Assembly: GCA_044892525.1 (NCBI GenBank)
Contig: CM097886.1
Coordinates: 22,506,001-22,570,000 of the forward strand
DNA: 64,000 nt
From: Schmidtea polychroa
Taxonomy: Eukaryota
Reading direction: 5' to 3'
The position numbers were made by a program, and so were the translations under genes. The notes below the pieces were generated by a model. It saw nothing but the letters and a program-made list of their open reading frames with translations, did not search any database and was not told the origin of the DNA. This document shows, piece by piece, positions 49,501 to 63,620 of this stretch; positions within the stretch are counted from its first letter, which is position 1, and every line of letters starts with the position of its first letter.

Positions 49501-52500
49501 TTTGTAAAATTTCCTGTGATTGATTGACAGTAAATATCCACGATTTCAGATACTATTTTTGACAGTATCATTTTTCATCGTTGTATAAAACACCATTGTA
49601 TTCGTAGTTATTTACACCATTTAGACTGACTATTTAGCCTGTGATCATTAGGTAATAGTATACCACGAAGTGCTTTTCATAAAGTATCAAAATTAAAGCA
49701 ATTATTAACAATACTGGCTATGACCAATCAAGATGACGAACATTTTCATGTTTAAATTTTAGCTATAGATAATTATTTATTTTCATGTCCTAGCAGTGTA
49801 GAAATTAAAAAACATCACTAAATAATAATTATGTATTATTTTTATTTATTGGTTATTATTATTGATAACTAGCTGGGGTACCTGGCGTTGCCCGGGGCAA
49901 TATAAGTTGTGTTGTTAAATTTTTTTCTTTCAGTAAAAACGCTAATTGCGCCAATGAATATAACCACAAAATAAATAAGAAGAGTTAAACATAGAATCTT
50001 ACCACTTTAGTTTTTTCATCTTCCTTTCTGGATTTCGTGCAGTTTTGACTGAAATTATAATTTTGGTTTTGTCTTACGAATTGATTCAAATTCTTCTGTG
50101 TAGTAGCTATTTATAGCTGTTACGAAGTAATAACAGGCACACAAATTGGCAGATATGGTAAAAATTATTAAAGCCCAAGTTGTATTTCAGACATATTTGC
50201 CTCCAAGGACTGTTGTTGATCTTGGTGAATTTTGGGTCTAATTATGTAGTCAGCGATCTGGGCCTGTACAAAAGAGATGGTACTGAAAAAAACTTGTCCC
50301 TGGGCAGTCATTAAATTCAAAGTTATACAAATTTCTTTTACAAAAACTAACATAAGCATTTGAACCTCAACCATTAATGGTTGATAGTTAGGTCACTTCG
50401 CAATCTCGATGCTGCCCCACCCCATGTAATCCTAGCTGACTGAAATCAAAATTTTATTATGCAAACCCACCCTGATAAATAACCTTTGCTTCAAACAATG
50501 TGCCCTATCTTGAACCTTATACCCTATTTTATCGGGGTGTAATTTAACTAGGGCGGGCTGTCAAAAAACCATGAACATTGTGTTATTCAAACCTACCCCG
50601 AGGAACAGTTTATATTTATGATAATTTTCTGATATTTGCTGCTTACTGGTGGTTTGCTTAGTAACCAGAAAACAGGATCAGTAAATAAGGTCCCCATGGG
50701 GTCAAAACTTTTGGATAGAAAGTAGCCTATAATCTCAGCCTGGGTGAAAGAGGAAGCTGTGTTAAATTTGGTTGAGACATCTTCAGAAATTTGGATTTGT
50801 ATAGTGAACATACAGACAAACAGACACACATTCACAATTATATGTTAGATTATTTAAAGGTTTAAAATGAAAACTAATTAAATATTATTCATTTTAAATC
50901 ATTAAATAGTGTTACAGTCATTACAGATATTATTGATTATTTATTGATTATAAAATTAAATTCAAATTTGATTTTATTTTTTGAAAAGAAATATTTAAAA
51001 AGTACTTTAATTAAAAAAATTGTATTAATGGATCGAATCGAATGTTAAACTTTCAAAAAAAAGAATAAAATACATTAATCTTAATATCCCATTGTAACCT
51101 AAAAGATTTTAGGTCTGATAGAAGAAAACGACCAAACTGTCTATGAATATTTTAAATATTTTAACGTATTTTATTTTGATTATTTTTCAAAAAAGTCTTT
51201 CCTTTGAATTCCCAGTACTCCTAAGTAATAATTATTCTCTATGGACAAATATCTCATTAAGAGCTTTGCATGATCTCAATCTCACCGGTTATTCGCCTGG
51301 TAAGTGAACCAGGTTCACGACACCTCCTTCGGTATTTATTTATAAATTGTTTTCGTTTTCTGAGGTTCTAATGAAATAATTATTTATAATGAATATATTT
51401 TTTAAAGCGATTAATTTATTATTAAAATTTCGCCTACTCATCAATTTGTTGAACTCAGCTCGCTACATTATTATGCTTTCTGGATTACAATGTCCGTCAC
51501 GCTCCATTGGTTTTTCACAGAGCATTTTTCATAGTTGACAGATTCAACTTGTTGTATTATTTTTCCTAGATAAATTTTAAGCAAAATTTCTAAAATGAAA
51601 CTTCAAACTTCATTTACTTTCATTCGGGAAAATGATGTATCCATTATCTTTACTTTTCTACAATAATTATAATAATAATAATAATAATAAAATAATAATA
51701 ATAATATTAATAATAATAATTATTATTATTATTGTATTTTTATTATTAATCGTAATAAATTTTCAGAATTAATTATTATTCCCGTACCAACAAAATTTAA
51801 TTTCAAAACGTAATTAAAATTGTTTTAATTTCCATATGTAATTAATGTTGACATTTAATTGTAAAATATTTAAACAAACAAATAATTCATTTATACTAAT
51901 ATCCGATGATTAAATATTCAAAAAAAGTAATTTGTTATAATCTCACAATTATCATTTATTATTATTATAAATATTATTATTATAATTAATATAATTATTA
52001 TTGAAATGGAAATTGAAATTTAAGGACGTCAGATTTCTTTAAACTTGAGGTAAAATTGCTAAAAAAGTTAGAATTTATTAATGAACGTAAAATAAAAAGT
52101 GAATCCAAAATTCTACAAAAAAAATAAGATTCTGTGCTTCACGGGCAACCTAATTGTGATGACATTAACGAGCCATTAGTAATCGTGTTAGATCTCCTTA
52201 TTAGATCTGCGAGTGCTACATTTCTATAATTGACAGCTACATGAGTGAAACATTTTTCTTTTCCACCAAATAATATTTTCTGCTATTTTCTAATTTAGAA
52301 TTTTCTCCCATTTCTAAAATATGATTATCAATAATATTTTAAATAAAATTCCAATTAATATTTTACTTTTAGTTTGATAGCACACCTCTACACAAGGCGG
52401 CTAGCATTGGACAAATTGATATAATTCAAATACTGCTTGAGAGAGGGGCTCAAGTCAACATCCAGGATTCTACGGTAGGTAGATGCGTAGGGTATTTGGA

Positions 52501-55500
52501 TGTATTGTCGTTTTTGTTAGCATGGTAATACTTCGTTGCATGAAGCCGCATGGAAAGGCTATTCTCAAACTGTTGAATATCTTTGTCTAATAGGCAGACT
52601 TCCTAATCTTGTAAATTATGTTAGTGGAACACAATTTGACAATAACATGTTGAATTTTTCAGTTTTTAAAATATTTTATTATTTATAGTCTCTTTTCACT
52701 CCTCTACATCTTGCTGTTCAAGGGGGACACAATCAGACTACTCGCAATTTGATAAAGTGTGGAGCTGATATTTTGGCTCAAAATAGGGTGATTTATTTTC
52801 TTTTTCTATTATTTTATGGCATTCTAATTAGTTTGGAGACACCCCACTGCATACTGGCGTTCGATACGGCCATGCTGGAGTATCAAGAATACTGATTTCT
52901 GTCAGTACAGATGTCAATCAAAGAAATCAAAATGGAGATACCGCTTTACATATAGCAGCCGCTTTGAAGCGACGAAAAATCACAAAATTGCTTGTTGAGT
53001 CTGGCGCAAGCATGGACATAAGAAATATTCAAAACGAAACTCCTTTGGATGTTGCATTGAAAAAATCTCATTCCGAAATCATAGAAATATTGAAAACGTG
53101 CAGTCCAAACACGAATCAAAAAACTGTTTCATTTCTTCCTGAAGTTTGTCTTTTAAACTTTCATTCTTTCTTATGGTTTTATTATTACTCATTTAGAATT
53201 TAAGGGAGAATTTCTCTGTGCAATCTCGCCATGTGTCTATACCGAATGAAATGTGCAGTGTAATAAATATTCCCGAACAAAAACCTTACCGGGCGAAATC
53301 TGAATCTCCCAATGAAAAAACTAAACCTTCAAAAAAGAATATTGTCAAAGGTATTTTTAGTCGAAAGAAAAAGGTTTGCTGGAAAAGCCATATAATTTTA
53401 TGATTGTTTTGAATTTCACAGGAAAAAGTAGACAAAGCTGATAAAAGTCAAAAGAAATCAAAGGAGAATCCCAAGCCACTTCCAACACAAACCACAGCCA
53501 GTAAATCAATATTGTGCAACAATATCAGTCGACGCAATTCCAATTTCAATTCCAGCGTCAAACAAGATTCTCCATTGACGAAAATTGCCCCAGTCCCAGG
53601 AATGATGAATATGTATCAGCCTCAATTAGGAAGTCAACTTTTCAAAGATCTTGCAGGAAACATAAAGCAGGTATTATTAACAGTCAGATGCTTTCAACAA
53701 GCACAAATATGTATTAAATTAATTTGGAAGGGGTNNNNNNNNNNNNNNNNNNNNNNNNNNNNNNNNNNNNNNNNNNNNNNNNNNNNNNNNNNNNNNNNNN
53801 NNNNNNNNNNNNNNNNNNNNNNNNNNNNNNNNNNNNNNNNNNNNNNNNNNNNNNNNNNNNNNNNNNNNNNNNNNNNNNNNNNNNNNNNNNNNNNNNNNNN
53901 NNNNNNNNNNNNNNNNNNNNNNNNNNNNNNNNNNNNNNNNNNNNNNNNNNNNNNNNNNNNNNNNNNNNNNNNNNNNNNNNNNNNNNNNNNNNNNNNNNNC
54001 ATACGACGGCAGTGCCTTGTAAGTACGACATTAATTAAGTTAGAACTTCATGAAAACCTTGCGTTTTCCAATAAAGGATTTTTCGTTTGAATTTCTTGAT
54101 GATAAATAATAATGAATAAATTTATTTGAAGAGTAATTTTCAAGTCCATAACTCCCTAAAATCAATAATAGTTCTTAATTTCTATGGATAATCAATAAAT
54201 TGAAATTTTAATTGCTAGAAAAAATTAATAAACTGAAAAATAAATTTCTTGGGGAAATATTTTTTATTATTAAATATTTCGAATTTAAATTATTAACACA
54301 GATTTCCCGGACAATTGTAGAATATTCTCTCCGTTCCAAAAATTATTTTCGATTTGTCAAGGAAATTGATCAAAAAAAACTGTCTGATTTAAAAAGTTAA
54401 TCTTTATTGGTACCTTTTAATATAGAAAAATCAAAACAAGAAAAGTAATACGATAATAGAATATGTAATAAACGATTTTACAATAGTTATTTTGGGTTTT
54501 ATTTTTCAAGTCGGTTCCCTCTGACTTCTCGTATTCTTATTTAAACAAATAAATCGATCAAAACAAATAAATCGATCAAAACAAATAAATAAATTCAATC
54601 AAATTACAATTTTTCACTAGATTTGCACCTTTCGTTGAATATAAATATTATTCGCTAAAAAAATAACCAGCAATCACCATTTTCTGATACGAGAATTAAA
54701 CTTTTTTTTCAATTACTATATTTCGTTCTCCGATCATTGGTCGCCTGATTCCCTGAGCTTCTCTTTGTTTTTTCGACCAACTGACTGTTTCTGAACTCTT
54801 TTTTATACTATTTTTGAGAGGGCAATTATCTACAGAATTGCAATTAATTATCTCACGGGAATCCTGGGTAAACATTTGAGGGTTTCCAAATTATTTTAAT
54901 TTGTTCTAGATTGGCGCTCGGAATATTCCCTCTCTTATCTTATCAATCGGGTCACACTGTGCCTCGGATTTCCTTCAGCGCTCGAGTTTCCCATAGGTAC
55001 GGGCTTTCCATTACAGATTAATTAATTTTAATTAATTTGTTTTTTCGCATTAACTTTCTCTGTGAACCTCTTTTTAAATTTTCTTTATAATTTTTGAACT
55101 CGTCTATCAATTTCGCGTTCAACCATACCCGATATTGATTTTTGATTTCAAGTAAGTTTTAATTAATTTTGCACTTTTATTGATTTTGTTATGCCTTCCT
55201 TTTATATATAAATAAATTTGGTTTTCTTACCAAACCTAAAAGTTTTAAGTTTATTTGTCTGTACAGCATAATAGGTTCTCTTGTCAATAAAATATTTTTA
55301 ATAAAATATTTTTTACCAAATCGGACAATTTTTTTGAAAAGGAACGAGTAATCTATAATTCATCACACTTTAATTCTACTTTTGATTAGGGGACCCAAGT
55401 GAGAGTTTCATGATCTTTTATAGGTGAGAAAATATATCATTTCATACAAGAGAGTTAAAGAAAAAATGCCCAATGTGTTATTCGGTACATATAATTTTCA

Positions 55501-58500
55501 ACTTGTGATGGTATAAAATATCTTTTTTTACGGATGTCTAACATTAAAATAATATAGACATTACTAGCTTTGTGATACCCAGTGCAAATCACAATAGTAG
55601 ACTAGTTTCTAGCTTTTGTCTCTCATCAGTACTATGCAGGAGACGCGAAGATTTCTCTTCGCGCCAGGTAGGTATACAATATTGCTGATTCAACTCTATT
55701 GCATACTTTCCCTGCTACACTGGATATCACATCACTTGCAAATTAGTTAAATCAAAGAAAATATATCTGCAAACTCGTAAACATGGCGTACGAAAAATCA
55801 TATTCGCCTCTGGAGGCACCGTCTATACACAGAAACTGTTTACAATTGCATCCGTAAACCTTTAGCATTTTTAACTTGTGATGGTATAAAATATCTTTTT
55901 TTACGGATGTCTAACATTTGAATAATATAAACATCACAAGCTTTGTGATACCCAGTGCAAATTCCAATAGTAGACTAGTTTCGAGCTTTTTCCTTCGCGT
56001 CTCCTGCATAGTACTGATGAGAGCCAAAAGCTCGAAACTAGTCTACCATTGGGATTTGCACTTGGTATCACAAAGCTTGTAATGTTTATTTAATTTTTAT
56101 GTTGCGAAACCTTTTCTGTATGTCTAATTTATCTACTCGGTTATCAAAGGTTTTACATTAGGTCAACTTTGAATTAAATTCCAAATTCTAAATTCAAAAA
56201 TAAAATAAGAATGTTATGAAATCAACTGGTTGATAGTTAGCTAGGTTAATTAACATAAAGTATGTCGTAATATTCAATGAAATATCTAACGGAAAACTAA
56301 TTATGTTTTCGAACTTGAATTACATCATCACTGGGTTTCATTCCAGGTATAATCAAGTTTTGATATTATAAAATATTTGAAAATTATTTTTAAATGAGAA
56401 ATTCATTTCCTCCGCAAGTGTTTCGGATAAAAAGTATCTTTTCATTCAAAGTGAAACATAATTTATGCAAATTCCAAAAATCTCGTGCCCCCTTATGGTG
56501 AATAACTGATCTGCAATATCATGACAACAACATTTGTAAGTTGTTTATTCATCCGACCAAATTTTGAATTCAAAGAAAGTTTTCAATAAATATTTTTATA
56601 AAAAATATAATTTCATTTTTTGTTTAAATAAAAGTTTGAAATCCACCATGAAAATGATAAATACAACTTTTGATAGGCCAATTAAAATGCTGGAAAATTT
56701 TCAAAGTACACTCGATTTGTAACGAATTTTAGTNNNNNNNNNNNNNNNNNNNNNNNNNNNNNNNNNNNNNNNNNNNNNNNNNNNNNNNNNNNNNNNNNNN
56801 NNNNNNNNNNNNNNNNNNNNNNNNNNNNNNNNNNNNNNNNNNNNNNNNNNNNNNNNNNNNNNNNNNNNNNNNNNNNNNNNNNNNNNNNNNNNNNNNNNNN
56901 NNNNNNNNNNNNNNNNNNNNNNNNNNNNNNNCAATGATTTAAATATAAGATAACGCCAATCAAACATTTTTTCACGATATATTTCGGCAGTTTTCCTGTC
57001 ATCATCAGGTGGGATATAATAACTACATAAATTAGGGATTTTAAACAAAATTATTTATTTTAATTATGGTAAAAGAGACTGTTGACAAATTTATTAAAAA
57101 TCCTACGGATCCATGTTTGAGAAAATCTGGGTGATATGTTGTTGAGGTATGTGAGTCTGATGAGTTAAATTAATTAATTAGTGTGCGCAAGGATGATGAA
57201 CCTAAATTTGTGTTAGTATTGCCGTACTCAGAAAGTTTTAAGGATTATAAAGTGAAGATAAAAAAGCAGTTAGGGAATTTAAACTATAGGATAGTGTCAA
57301 CTTCATGGAAAGTACGCAATATGTTTATTAATGAGTCAAAAAATCCGGTCGAATTGTGATCCGATCTCGTTTATCAGTTAATATGTAATGGGTGTAATGC
57401 CACATACATTGGAAAGACTTCCCGGCATCTCTGTATTCGAGCTCGAGAACATTATAGATCGAAGGCTTTGACCCATATTATTGAGCACAATAAGGGCTGT
57501 AAGATATAAGATAGGTATGTCTGATTTTAAAATTTTATTAAAAAATTTCGATAATTATTGGGAACGTATAATTTGTGAGACGTTATTGATAAAGTCATTG
57601 AATCCAAAAATTAATGTGCAGAATGCAGTGAATACTTGTGTTTTAAATGTTTTTTAAATATTTTTTTGTATATTGTATGTATTGATTGCTATTTGTGAAA
57701 TTAATTAATTAATAAAAAAAAATTTTAATAATAATTTATAATTTTAATTATGATTTTTAAAAAATGAAATATTTTTATTAAATAATAAAAATAAATTTTT
57801 AAAATAAATAAATTTGTTTGAAAATCCTTAATTTATATAGTTATTATATCCCACCTGGTGATGTNNNNNNNNNNNNNNNNNNNNNNNNNNNNNNNNNNNN
57901 NNNNNNNNNNNNNNNNNNNNNNNNNNNNNNNNNNNNNNNNNNNNNNNNNNNNNNNNNNNNNNNNNNNNNNNNNNNNNNNNNNNNNNNNNNNNNNNNNNNN
58001 NNNNNNNNNNNNNNNNNNNNNNCATGTGTCTGATTGGATAATTTGTGTGAGATCCAATTACACCGTAACGAACGTCATAAATGCTAATCTAATTCAACAA
58101 CCACATCTGGGTGCCGTATTGATTAGGCGTAGGGATTGATTGATTACTGATCGGATCAGGTGTTGGATTGGTTACATGGTCGATATAATTAGTAAATGAA
58201 TTATTATCATGTCGATCAACCGGTTGATGCTGATGTAGATTCATCAATTTTTTTTCTCTATTTCACGATTTATTAAAATTTATAAATTAATGATTTTTAT
58301 AATTTGAAAAAATTTATCGATTGATCCTGAAACGGATCAATGTTCATTGATGGATTATTCATAGATTTCCGATCAATTCCACCAGGTAACTGTCGCAGAC
58401 TTGATTTATATGCATTGTATAATTTGAATGAACCTGCCAATTGGCCGATAATTGTGAAATATATAATCTAGGGCCCGATCGGGTACATGCCCATTGCCAA

Positions 58501-58819: not shown

Positions 58820-59989
58820 ATTCAACAACAGAAATTTCACTTTCCACATGCCCAGTAAGGCCTCAAATTAAGANNNNNNNNNNNNNNNNNNNNNNNNNNN
58901 NNNNNNNNNNNNNNNNNNNNNNNNNNNNNNNNNNNNNNNNNNNNNNNNNNNNNNNNNNNNNNNNNNNNNNNNNNNNNNNNNNNNNNNNNNNNNNNNNNNN
59001 NNNNNNNNNNNNNNNNNTTTTTCTCTAACTTTAATCAGTTAAGATCAAAAAGTGGGATTAAAGGTCTTAACACTAATCTGACTCCAAATAAATGTGAATA
59101 AATAGAAATATAACTTATCATATATAAGTTATAGATATGATATAGTGGGTTGCGTTCTATATAAATAAATAAAGTAAAGACAATTATTTATCACTAATGC
59201 ACTTTATTTATAATACAAGTTTATAATTATTTTTGTGTAAAATGTACAAGAAATAAAGAAACTGGATCAATGGATCCCTAAACAATGGTCTGAAAGAAGT
59301 CGATGGATCATTTGCAGCGCATCGACTTATCTTTAATCTGACAGTAAGGTGAATGGTGCTGATTTTGGGACTCCTCGGGTGCAGCGGAAACTGTCGTATA
59401 TTTCGAGGATTGTCAATGTTAATAATATTATTTAATTAATTATATCCGGATTAATGAATCCGTTGAGGTTTCCTTTTACTTTGAATTTAAAGAATTACAG
59501 ATCAGGATATGAGGTATCCTTATTTTGTTAAGAAATGAGGCTTGTCTGCAGGTTCGTCTTTGTTTAGGATAGAATGCATCTTCAAAACGCTGCTTATTTT
59601 TAAGGTTGCTAGATTCTCTCTGGATACTTACTGAAAATTCTGCAAATATCTTAATTGATTTCTCTTTGTCTCTTGAGCTTCGGAATCGACTTTCCTTTAA
59701 TAGGGAAATGTATTCCTGCTGTTTCCTATATATAAGACTTCTTGATCAACTAACACCACCTGTTGAATTGGTTCTATAAAAATCTGGTTCCAATTTTTTA
59801 AATCTACTCCCAAGCTGTCGCTTTTATATTCTATAATCGTAATAATTTGAGATTTCTTCGTTCTCCAAACTGCAATCGAGCATATTTAATGAATGTTTCT
59901 TTTTTCTTTCGGCCATCAAAATTAAAATGGTGGGGTTTATATATAAAATTAATTATAAAAATAATTATAATTAATAATAATAATGAGTG

Positions 59990-60410
59990 TAATATTCTTT
60001 GTCGGACACTTAATTGAAATAACAAACGCAAGCTTTGTTTGTGATACCTAATGCAGGTCTCAATAGTAGGCTTGTTTCGAGCATTTCCCTCTCATCAGTA
60101 CTATGTAGGAAGCGTGAAGATTTCTCTTCTCACCATCTAAGTATACAACAGTGTTGAATCAACTTCACTGTATACTTTACCTGGTACACTGAATATCACA
60201 TTGCTTGCATTTTTGATTGGTCACAGAAAATCTGTAAACTTGCAAACATGGTGTATGAAAAATTATAATCACCTCTGTGCACTAATAAAATTAGTCAAAA
60301 TGCAGAAACTGTTTGCAAGCGCATCCGATCACATTTAGCATTTAATTTTCAAAGTAGGGATGAAATATATTTTTGTCGGATGTCTGACATTTAATTAAAA
60401 TGAACATTAA
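59990..60410 (-). mobile_element. Divergent retrozyme-like monomer (~374-nt unit plus ~50-nt terminal redundancy)
   Basis: Colinear homology with the 55.5-kb unit along its length; ttgtcgga repeated at ~59999 and ~60373. Confidence 0.82.
60063..60104 (-). ncRNA. Type I hammerhead ribozyme, degenerate cleavage site
   Basis: AUAGUA CUGAUGA GAG-GGAAAUG-CUC GAAAC AA GCC UACUAU; GUC changed to GCC, predicted inactive. Confidence 0.8.
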
Positions 60411-62271
60411 TAATAATTTTTCACTTTCTATTAGTCAGAAAAGTCTATCGGTATTTCCAACCGAGGTCTATTAGAAATTCAGGTTGTCAGAAGTAAATGA
60501 GTAACGACCAAAAGCTATCCTAAAAGTAGGAAGGTGTGTCACCTCTGAAGGTATAAGACTACTTAGTGTAATGGGAAATAAAATAGAAATGGGTGATGAT
60601 GATAATGAAAATAACAATAAACATGGCCGCGAGGCAATGGGAAGTTTGGAGATTAGATATTGGAAAATGAAAATATTGAAACCAAGAACAAACTTCGTTT
60701 CTTTTGTTATGTGGCTCATTGAAAAGGTAGTAAGCAAAATTTAACAGCTAAATTAGGCCACGGTTTACCAACACCGGCAAAGAAATTTACACGAAACTGA
60801 TCAGTTGTGAAAGGTCTTTATAAGATTATTTGGTAAGTTGACATTCACCGATGACGATTTTTGGACATATTGTATACCTAAAAAGGCATTTAAATGTAAT
60901 ACGATGGAGGAAAATCATTACAAATTAACGAAGTTATTGCCAAAGAATTTGTGCAAATGGATCACCACTTTTTGTGTAATGGAAAAGTTAAGGAGCACCA
61001 CCAAATTTAAGGATACTAATTTCTGCATGTTGAGTAAATACTAAGTAAATCGGATATTTGTTAGTTTGTTTGTCCTTATCAAAACATTAAAGGGGTCTGT
61101 GATGAGACTTATTACACATATTTATGAAATACACAATAGTTCTTCAAACTTCCTATATATAGTGCCCACCAGGGTTATCTTAAAGGAAATCCGTCTCTGG
61201 ACAGACATGAGCGGATGTACTGGTCAGTTTTTACTGCGAATATGATAAAATCAAAATTGATGTATGATAAACATTCTGGATTTATTAAACCTTTTCTTAA
61301 CTATTTGTCAATGTTATTTCTGGCTCGGTATCCTTAATTTTTGATTCTTTGATATATTCTCAACCAAATAATATATAATGTTTGGTTCGGTATCTGTCAA
61401 AATGTAACCAAATCCAAATTAAAACTAGATTCGTACGAATACGCAAAAAGTCACTGCTTTGCTTTGCATGTCTCTGTAACATCAGATCATATAGCAATAG
61501 AATTACAGAAGAACTGAGGTTCTGAATACATTCGATATTGAAGATATTATTGGGTGTGTTTATATCATTGTATATGTATAATCTTTGCTTTCCCTCCAAT
61601 GTTCATAAAGGTCATGGTTACTAATATATGTGAAAACTACTGTTAGCAGCAGAGGCTGAAGTAGAAAAAGAAAAATGCATCCCTACAAAATTTGTAATCT
61701 TTTTCTTGAACATATATTTAGGTAGGTGTATAAAAATGCAAATATAATATCAATAAACACAAACCTTTTTCTATCCCATTTTTATTCTTCGTCTAGGAAG
61801 GTGAGCCCTGACAATTCTTTTGGATTGTTTTCAGCTAGGTGAATATACACATTTTAATATATACAAGTTGTAACATTTTAATCTACAAAGGATTTGAAAC
61901 ATGTTAAATTTGTCATATAGTTACAGACACATGATAGGAAAGTCCTAAGTTCAGCAATGTAAGTATTCGGATAGTATTATGCGACAGATTTATTCAGATG
62001 CATAAAATTACATAGATTCAGTTACAAGTACTTCATTTCCAACAATACGTATACAGTCCTAATCCCCGCGAGCTACATATGTACGTCTTTCTCAATTACA
62101 TATGTTGCAAAATGAGATCATTTGTCATTGAGAATTAAGAAATGTATCTATTTTCATGATTTACCGTATACAAGATACTTTTGTTTGATTGTTTCGAAAA
62201 TTCAAAATAAACACATTTGGTTAGGTATTAATATATGTCTGTAAAATTTTCATAAACCAGTGGTTTTAAAT

Positions 62272-62469
62272 GAGTATAGGACAATATCCCCCTGGACAAA
62301 TACCCCCACTCTTGTTAATAATGCATATATTTTAGTATGTATATAATAATAAAGACATTGTAGTTGTATGCATTATTAATTAATTGTCTCGGGGATATCG
62401 TCCATGGGATATCAACCGGTGGGATATTATCCAGGGGGATATTGTCGGGGGATATATTGTCTTGGTACT
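62272..62469. mobile_element. MULE-type MITE
   Basis: 9-bp TSD GTTTTAAAT; inverted arrays of GGACAATATCCCC / GGGGATATTGTC motifs. Confidence 0.8.
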
Positions 62470-63171
62470 GTTTTAAATACAAGAAAATTGATTTAAAAAA
62501 ACTCCAGTTACTCTCGCCTCGTCCAAGCAGCATCCGAGGCAGCGTTTTTTCCTACTCAATTCTTGTTCAGCCTCCGCTTATAAAAATTCAAAAGATCATA
62601 CAAAGTATATTGAATAAATTTGATTCTTTTCACAAATGCGCTCTATCAATCAGTTCATCCAATCATATCCATCCAAACTGCATATAGTAACAGTAATATT
62701 CACTTTGTACAATTTTCACCAAATCTACACAAATCTTCTTTAAATTTTTTTCACTGATTTTTTTTATAATTTTTACATTATTTTATTCTTCTTTCTATAT
62801 GAAGCTGGTTCCATTAATCTTAGTTCCGTTCTCTCGCTTATTTCCCTTTCTGTTTACTTAATTCACAGGTGTATGTAAAACTTGACTACATGTTTAAAAG
62901 ATGTAATATAAAATATTTTCTTCTCCTGTCCATTACAGCCAAATTCTCATCTATTGCCGTGATCAGGATTCCCGAAAACCTTTGCGTTGTCTTTTAAATT
63001 TGTAACTTTGTTACTTATCTGTCCTTTTCTTTAATTAATTAATAATTCTGTTTTTCACTCTCTTCAATACAAGCCTTCACGTACCAAAAATATTTTGTTC
63101 CGCAAATTAATTTCTTTCCATAAGCTTTAATCCAGGCTATCTTTCAGTTTGCTATCCTTTCATACAGTGAG

Positions 63172-63620
63172 CATGGCCGTATTAATAAGTTTGAGCGCCC
63201 TGGGCTAAATAAAATTTTGCACCCCTACATACTTTTATTATAAAAATTCAATTTTATTTTCAAAAATTCAAAACTTAAATATGCATTTACGCCAAACAAA
63301 ATTCAAAAAATTTATATAAATATGTGAATTAAATATTAATTTTTAATTTAAATATGTCTTTTGCGGCATTTATTTTTAGCAAATATATCTATAATTTTCT
63401 TGTGATCCAGTTTCTCAAGGACATCCGATTCTATTGACAAAATACTTAAATTATTTAATTTGTATTGTTCTAAAGATGATCTTAGATGATTTTTTATTCT
63501 CTTGAGAGTTGAAAACGACCTTTCTCCGCTACAATTTGTACAGGCGATACTTAAATACATTCGTAGAGCTGTTGTTATATTCGGATAAATTAATGTGATT
63601 CAATAATACAAGGTTTGCTC
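63172..63620 (-). mobile_element. hAT (Tip100/ZMYM1-like) transposon 3' end
   Basis: Dimerisation domain YLSIACTNCSGERSFSTLKRIKNHLRSSL (63348-63560); terminus CATGGCCGTATTAA...GCGCCC. Confidence 0.8.

Follow-up and report, generated by a model that had tools for sequence, protein, structure and literature searches.

The window analysed here, a 64,000-nt stretch of Schmidtea polychroa DNA, holds a remnant of a GIY-YIG Penelope-like element (PLE) and, 828 nt away, a copy of a retrozyme, a small non-coding tandem unit with a type I hammerhead whose array units are 99-100% alike (Table 1). A first-pass annotation had correctly placed the two less than 1 kb apart. The PLE remnant belongs to a family that we designated P; the genome sampled for both elements comprised 781 Mb at 30% GC. 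The P copy and the retrozyme lie between exon-like minus-strand frames, and ankyrin-repeat exons of a host gene lie at 52373-53200 (+), with a Pfam E value of 1.9e-23 for 52832-53200. Farther along the window are a dispersed repeat (62255-62480), small in size, whose ends are inverted and which contains an internal repeat of 15 nt and served as a control, and a remnant of a hAT transposase dimerisation domain (63351-63596, minus strand; Pfam E 1e-8).

Table 1 Features of the PLE remnant and the retrozyme copies in the window
Feature	Position	Strand	Basis or remark
Minimal type I hammerhead of the family P copy	56973..57011	-	Sequence, descriptor and shuffles
Inverted 5'-truncated arm, family P 3' end with tail	56932..57058	-	blastn against intact copy L068: P2624-2750; reaches P2771 in genome copy L001
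Direct 5'-truncated arm, family P	57046..57864	+	P1820-2681, 84% identity (7.9% substitutions) to L068
GIY-YIG endonuclease remnant with CCHH-type motif, frameshifted	57360..57654	+	Three stops just upstream
U1 snRNA nt 1-16 look-alike	55660..55675	-	15/16 here, 16/16 in young copies; 76 nt upstream of cut
Retrozyme direct arm: 373-nt monomer and 124-nt partial copy, long 3' end	55494..55990	-	
Retrozyme inverted arm, intact hammerhead core (56014-56043), short 3' end	55993..56103	+	
Core of the retrozyme type I hammerhead; loop 3 is CTAG, and mutation has weakened stem II	55600..55629	-	
Further member of this retrozyme family, older and more decayed	59981..60412	-	

The P copy consists of two arms joined head-to-head. 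When mapped to family P, the inverted arm (56932-57058) and the direct arm (57046-57863) overlap by 13 nt, and within the window the inverted 3'-end copy at 57000-57061 pairs with 57802-57863, which bears out the annotated PLE integration signature of a 5' inverted copy of the 3' end. In the genome copy of the locus (L001), the inverted arm continues for about 21 nt past its window-visible part, and the short end of the direct arm lies about 25 nt past its own. In that copy the inverted arm carries the long end of the family, and the direct arm, after a 34-nt deletion, carries the short end. The direct arm contains, in order, the end of the linker, the GIY-YIG domain, the 3' UTR and a damaged hammerhead. 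The GIY-YIG remnant has 84% DNA identity to the intact family P member and a Pfam E value of 0.0035 (18 bits, below the cut-off of 22.6). The copy begins 3' of the RT (reverse transcriptase) domain, and it cannot be autonomous because it has no RT, three stops and one frameshift; the proposal that this copy was itself the autonomous partner of the retrozyme therefore fails. It is a dead, head-to-head, 5'-truncated member of its family, an ordinary PLE remnant that differs by 6-8% from its nearest relatives. Simple repeats border it on both sides, so its target-site duplication (TSD) is unreadable.

The remnant does have its own minimal hammerhead, as annotated, and it is intact on the inverted arm. 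A strict hammerhead descriptor gave two matches in the window, this one and one in a retrozyme, and none in 100 shuffles. The core starts at 57008 and the predicted cut falls between 56976 and 56975 on the minus strand. Stem I is CAC/GTG, an extra U follows A9, stem II has five base pairs with one mismatch, and loop 3 is the palindrome TATA. A short stem I and an unpaired base ahead of stem II characterise the P hammerhead, and by motif a minimal hammerhead is present in the family P pLTR. Among 29 copies (L002-L030), 19 have an intact core, and 15 of these have one of two palindromes, TATA or TTAA, as loop 3; a palindromic loop 3 is what a putative dimeric ribozyme would need. An Rfam scan placed none of these hammerheads at gathering score, and single-strand folding of the hammerheads and 3' regions gave z-scores of -1.0 to +0.6, with nothing common to PLE and retrozyme. 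The direct-arm hammerhead is damaged by a G in the core and, in the genome copy, by the 34-nt deletion. An identical deletion, with loss of the hammerhead core, occurs in one arm of two P insertions, the window copy L001 and L004:321-439; it lies between short repeats and may reflect RT skipping over a fold.

Searches with family P gave 4580 first-look candidates by DNA and 7636 by protein, of which the best 40 and 150, respectively, were scored. A full PLE, whose reconstruction the first-pass annotation had proposed as a check, is present in L068: this intact copy has a single 873-aa ORF with an RT (RVT_1 E 1.8e-9) followed by a C-terminal GIY-YIG domain (E 0.02, below the Pfam cut-off), a 477-nt pLTR from a partial tandem, and an inverted arm that is 99.7% alike. 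The ORF start falls within the hammerhead core, in stem II, and the protein begins MMTGK in L068; the ORF of the anole Poseidon element also starts in hammerhead stem II (PMC11167929, in the part available). These features suggest that family P is active. The L068 protein has the CCHH motif and is without the CX2-5CxxC linker (criterion of PMC8557442, as given in its accessible sections), which points to the Penelope/Poseidon clade, a placement made on motifs alone and not on a tree. As far as sequences were compared, P appears to be a new family. A PDB sequence search with the 873-aa protein returned only weak retron and group II RT matches (E 0.03-0.6).

Insertions of family P have a regular end structure. 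At 30 young loci, 3' ends after the predicted cut were found at +32-40 (12), +59-76 (14) and elsewhere (4), and all 10 two-armed young inserts combine a long and a short end. A 31-nt tail is present at one end only. TSDs of 12-15 nt flank 7 of 7 readable young two-armed inserts outside microsatellites, while 42 cross pairs used as a control gave at most 9 nt. The first-pass annotation had noted no TSD hallmarks in the retrozyme array and had named TSDs on retrozyme copies as evidence that would refute the partnership; neither holds, given that short duplications occur in both PLEs and retrozymes where readable, that P makes them, and that short TSDs are described for PLEs (PMC3846280, as far as its text is available). 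In what is accessible of the papers on Penelope/Poseidon EN+ PLEs (PMC8557442, PMC3846280, PMC11167929), these elements are like P in having an RT followed by a C-terminal GIY-YIG, a pLTR by partial tandem, an inverted 5'-truncated arm, an optional 31-nt tail at one end, short TSDs and AT-rich targets, with no difference of kind. Layout, tail, TSD and microsatellite bias of PLEs are described in PMC8557442 and PMC3846280, and the tail signature was traced to two internal RT start sites in PMC11167929, again in the portions available.

The retrozyme in the window (55494-56103) has the same direct-plus-inverted layout as the PLE, as annotated. It was described as an array, but its length is only 1.33 monomers, to which an inverted arm of 111 nt is added. 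A DNA search gave 2337 candidates, among which a young subfamily has 378-nt units that are 97-100% alike and range from monomers to arrays of 11 units. In 38 young inserts (one duplicate dropped), 3' ends lie at +46-52 (32), +92-96 (7) and +30 (1). Long and short ends are combined in all four two-armed young copies (L188, L241, L386, L388). The older set comprised 56 loci after the window's own copy and two duplicates were dropped, and by hand count 13 of its 20 two-armed copies have a long and a short end, one has two long ends and six have an arm that does not reach an end; an apparent cluster at +75-79 comes from the alignment breaking off at an A-run and was not used for end positions. Of the seven inserts whose flanks are plain, three (L233, L241, L388) have duplications of 10-12 nt and the other four of 3-8 nt; L188, in a minisatellite, was excluded from this count, and three retrozymes with a microsatellite on one side have duplications of 13-18 nt. 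The retrozyme thus integrates like a PLE, with two 3' ends and with long and short arms, although the TSD part of this likeness is weak (3/7). The genome-wide comparison of ends and junctions that the first-pass annotation had called for therefore supports PLE-type copying.

Retrozyme 5' ends at the hammerhead cut were considered and rejected; the 5' ends are scattered over Y1-Y319. Units within L222 and L233 share variants, as a rolling-circle origin of arrays might leave them, but L248 and L244, in which a variant pair comes back every four units, suggest that units were duplicated once the element had inserted. In the 11-unit array at L244:2065-6222, two linked variants are found at unit 2 and again at unit 6, as a block duplication after insertion would leave them. 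The retrozyme is seen in assembled contigs; none is recorded as RNA.

The retrozyme unit also carries a piece that resembles the start of U1 snRNA. It matches the 5' end of this genome's U1 at 16/16 positions and two other U1 types at 18/19. The piece is kept in both retrozyme subfamilies; among older copies it is exact in 28/51 and has one change in 17/51. A related repeat in the contigs of a second organism has a similar U1-like motif. A matrix built from 10 U1/U2 upstream regions scored the region upstream of the retrozyme piece no better than random, with 36-79% of positions scoring as high. As a post hoc hint, a TGCAA box lies at -65 in the retrozyme and at -66 to -68 in four of the upstream regions. 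A literature search found no paper on a U1-headed retrozyme or on tail-type retrozyme ends; its coverage left out most subscription journals.

The tblastn search revealed a second PLE family, P2, with 23% protein identity to P. All 150 scored matches to its endonuclease are identical and several frames of 856 aa are intact (e.g. L383:1448-4580); P2 is therefore multiplying now, in a current burst. Its hammerhead core is of the U3-A8 form described for Schistosoma Cercyon (PMC4209133, in the part available). The linker before the GIY-YIG domain is cysteine-rich and reads C-x4-C-x6-C, which differs from the literal Neptune/Nematis motif CX2-5CxxC. At 28 of 30 loci, P2 3' ends lie at +50-64 (17, of which the 11 at +64 merge with the AAT target) or +90-96 (11). 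Long and short ends are paired in 16/17 cases. P, P2 and the retrozyme have in common two fixed end sites after the hammerhead, random 5' truncation, and AT-rich or (AAT)n targets.

The families differ in where these ends fall and what they touch, with the caveat for all such counts that end windows were set after the data had been seen and that the samples are the best matches per search, not random copies. Ends touch (AAT)n in 26/36 cases for the young retrozyme, 39/51 for P2 and 9/31 for young P, against 28/980 background positions; the retrozyme is thus like P2 (P = 0.80) and unlike P (P = 0.0006). Against this, older retrozymes and older P copies show no difference in microsatellite contact (13/64 vs 11/71, P = 0.5), and simple repeats border even the window P copy. 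The tail measures 31 nt in P and about 43 nt in the young retrozyme, and the short-end positions of retrozyme and P2 overlap in part only. On end spacing and target choice together, P2 is favoured as the partner of the retrozyme. We consider that the window P copy is dead within an active family and that the retrozyme beside it is a separate insertion, probably made in trans by a PLE RT and endonuclease, more probably that of P2 than of P. Partnership with P2 is the reading that we hold, with some confidence, ahead of partnership with the neighbour's family, which we regard as improbable.

Proximity does not alter this assignment. P lies within about 1.5 kb of 11/56 older and 4/42 young retrozymes, and P2 within the same distance of 10/56 older and 6/42 young ones; among the controls, 29 loci of a different repeat had P nearby in 1 case and P2 in 3, and 60 random windows in 2 and 4 cases, respectively. 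Conversely, a retrozyme is near 3/88 P loci and 0/50 P2 loci. Both PLE families are thus mildly enriched near retrozymes, as shared AT-rich landing zones would give. Because P and P2 are about equally frequent beside retrozymes, the neighbourhood does not name the partner, and the P copy likely lies beside the retrozyme by chance. The window pair as one co-mobilised unit was rejected: the best-matching neighbour pair (C1:209.39 Mb) is laid out differently, with a P2 fold-back in between. Likewise L046, where a retrozyme abuts P2, was rejected as a chimera, its P2 part being 98-100% identical to the young family and its retrozyme 85%.

Two head-to-head junctions of retrozyme and PLE arms were found, at L107:3607-5381 (L107/L037) and L140:1003-1632, and both involve P and none P2; they are possible template-switch chimeras. 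In L107, a retrozyme long end and a like-oriented 86-nt piece of P are joined head-to-head to a short-end P arm; in L140, a retrozyme arm meets a P arm via an overlap of about 9 nt, and both ends are long. The L107 P arm has diverged by 9-10%, and the 86-nt piece and retrozyme by 4-7%. The ages and ends of the two loci fit a single event imperfectly. These junctions bear on the alternative that family P, through members other than the dead window copy, mobilises the retrozyme alone or with P2. The L107 layout is the product expected of one integration with a template switch, the L140 junction also counts for P, the window P copy and retrozyme are of the same age, and P is enriched within 1.5 kb of older retrozymes over random windows (P = 0.007). 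However, the parts of L107 have diverged unequally and L140 has two long ends, and both junctions could have arisen when sequence between neighbours was lost at a later time; P2 is enriched to the same degree, few P loci and no P2 locus have a retrozyme nearby, and the end spacing and microsatellite rate of P are unlike those of the young retrozyme. We therefore judge mobilisation by P unlikely.

No similarity was found between retrozyme and P (best E 0.048), and alignment of the retrozyme post-cut region to P2 and P was no better than to shuffles (505-720 of 1000 for P2), so derivation of the retrozyme from the pLTR of either family was rejected. A third PLE family, outside the P and P2 samples, could be both parent and mobiliser and share the 3'-region sequence of the retrozyme, as in Xenopus retrozymes and pLTRs, where the accessible text of bioRxiv 10.64898/2026.07.22.740005 gives pLTR homology for 24/57 families. 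A tblastn search with the P protein of 94 retrozyme and 49 control loci yielded only P and P2, however, and the best 40 matches scored in the retrozyme DNA search were retrozyme copies only, which leaves such a family quite improbable.

The missing homology to P and P2 would also suit movement of the retrozyme by a LINE or by non-specific repair, the inversions arising by twin priming and the likeness to PLEs by convergence; 5' inversions are known from L1. Twin priming would not, however, leave a 3' end on both arms, long on one and short on the other, and the two-site end pattern is the same as in both PLE families. The retrozyme also has no poly(A) and no element-encoded tail. This explanation is therefore very improbable.

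The mechanism by which P2 would act can be sketched from the ends. By analogy with Poseidon biochemistry (PMC11167929, in its accessible part), the PLE protein would nick both DNA strands at ATT, and reverse transcription would begin at two internal RNA sites; use of one start would yield a single arm, and use of both a head-to-head pair. The retrozyme would be transcribed through its tandem units, perhaps from a U1-type start, and its hammerhead may cut the RNA and close it into a circle. Copying that starts at +50 or +93 and runs back across the unit junction, on a template that would be a circle or an uncut multimer, would give copies longer than one monomer. The neighbours in the window have similar ages, each being 6-8% away from its closest relatives, and probably landed in one AT-rich zone. 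We put forward only tentatively that the P2 enzyme copies in trans a hammerhead RNA that begins with a U1 piece and shares no sequence with any PLE, and that it recognises this RNA through structure or through the hammerhead spacing of the +50 and +93 starts.

The two-component idea itself is already known. PLEs have been proposed as likely mobilisers of retrozymes (PMC7229834), and vertebrate retrozymes are presented as PLE derivatives, from co-occurrence and pLTR trees, in bioRxiv 10.64898/2026.07.22.740005; in the accessible portion of this preprint we found no junction, tail or TSD analysis, and other organisms are stated to be unexamined. The animal non-LTR retrozymes of these two sources, as far as the sources are accessible, are like the retrozyme described here in a non-coding unit of 373-378 nt, a type I hammerhead, a range from monomers to 11-unit arrays, and co-occurrence with PLEs. 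In contrast to their arguments from co-occurrence and pLTR similarity, our case is made from the integration footprint, with no detectable pLTR homology and with U1 nt 1-16 in the unit. Non-coding passengers with PLE architecture are also described, in the parts of PMC8557442 and PMC3846280 available, for non-autonomous Chlamys PLEs (MRC1) and pLTR-driven trans mobilisation in Adineta; MRC1-type and Adineta passengers have 3' or pLTR sequence in common with the partner element, whereas the retrozyme has none detectable against P or P2.

The part of the annotated two-component system that stands is the PLE-type footprint, which is found genome-wide and gives the idea new support; its assignment to the neighbour's family is less likely, the ends and targets fitting P2 better. 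Arguments about the enzyme that mobilises retrozymes in animals still start from likeness of sequence and from co-occurrence. Retrozyme insertions bear the two-start-site signature that has been tied in vitro to reverse transcription by PLEs, and for the two candidate enzymes, both with intact ORFs in this genome, the predicted start sites and targets differ, so the question is directly testable with an existing assay. If true, assignment to P2 would for the first time link an animal retrozyme, at the level of its footprint, with a single named autonomous partner in the course of multiplying.

The U1 genes themselves are diverse. At least five divergent U1 variants are present in the genome (L249-L260), one of them in a 1771-nt tandem array on C4. 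Inside a U1 cluster in L252, about 340 nt downstream of the start of the U1 match, a U1-like 5' end sits on an unrelated body, and its first 19 nt match the retrozyme U1 piece at 18 positions.
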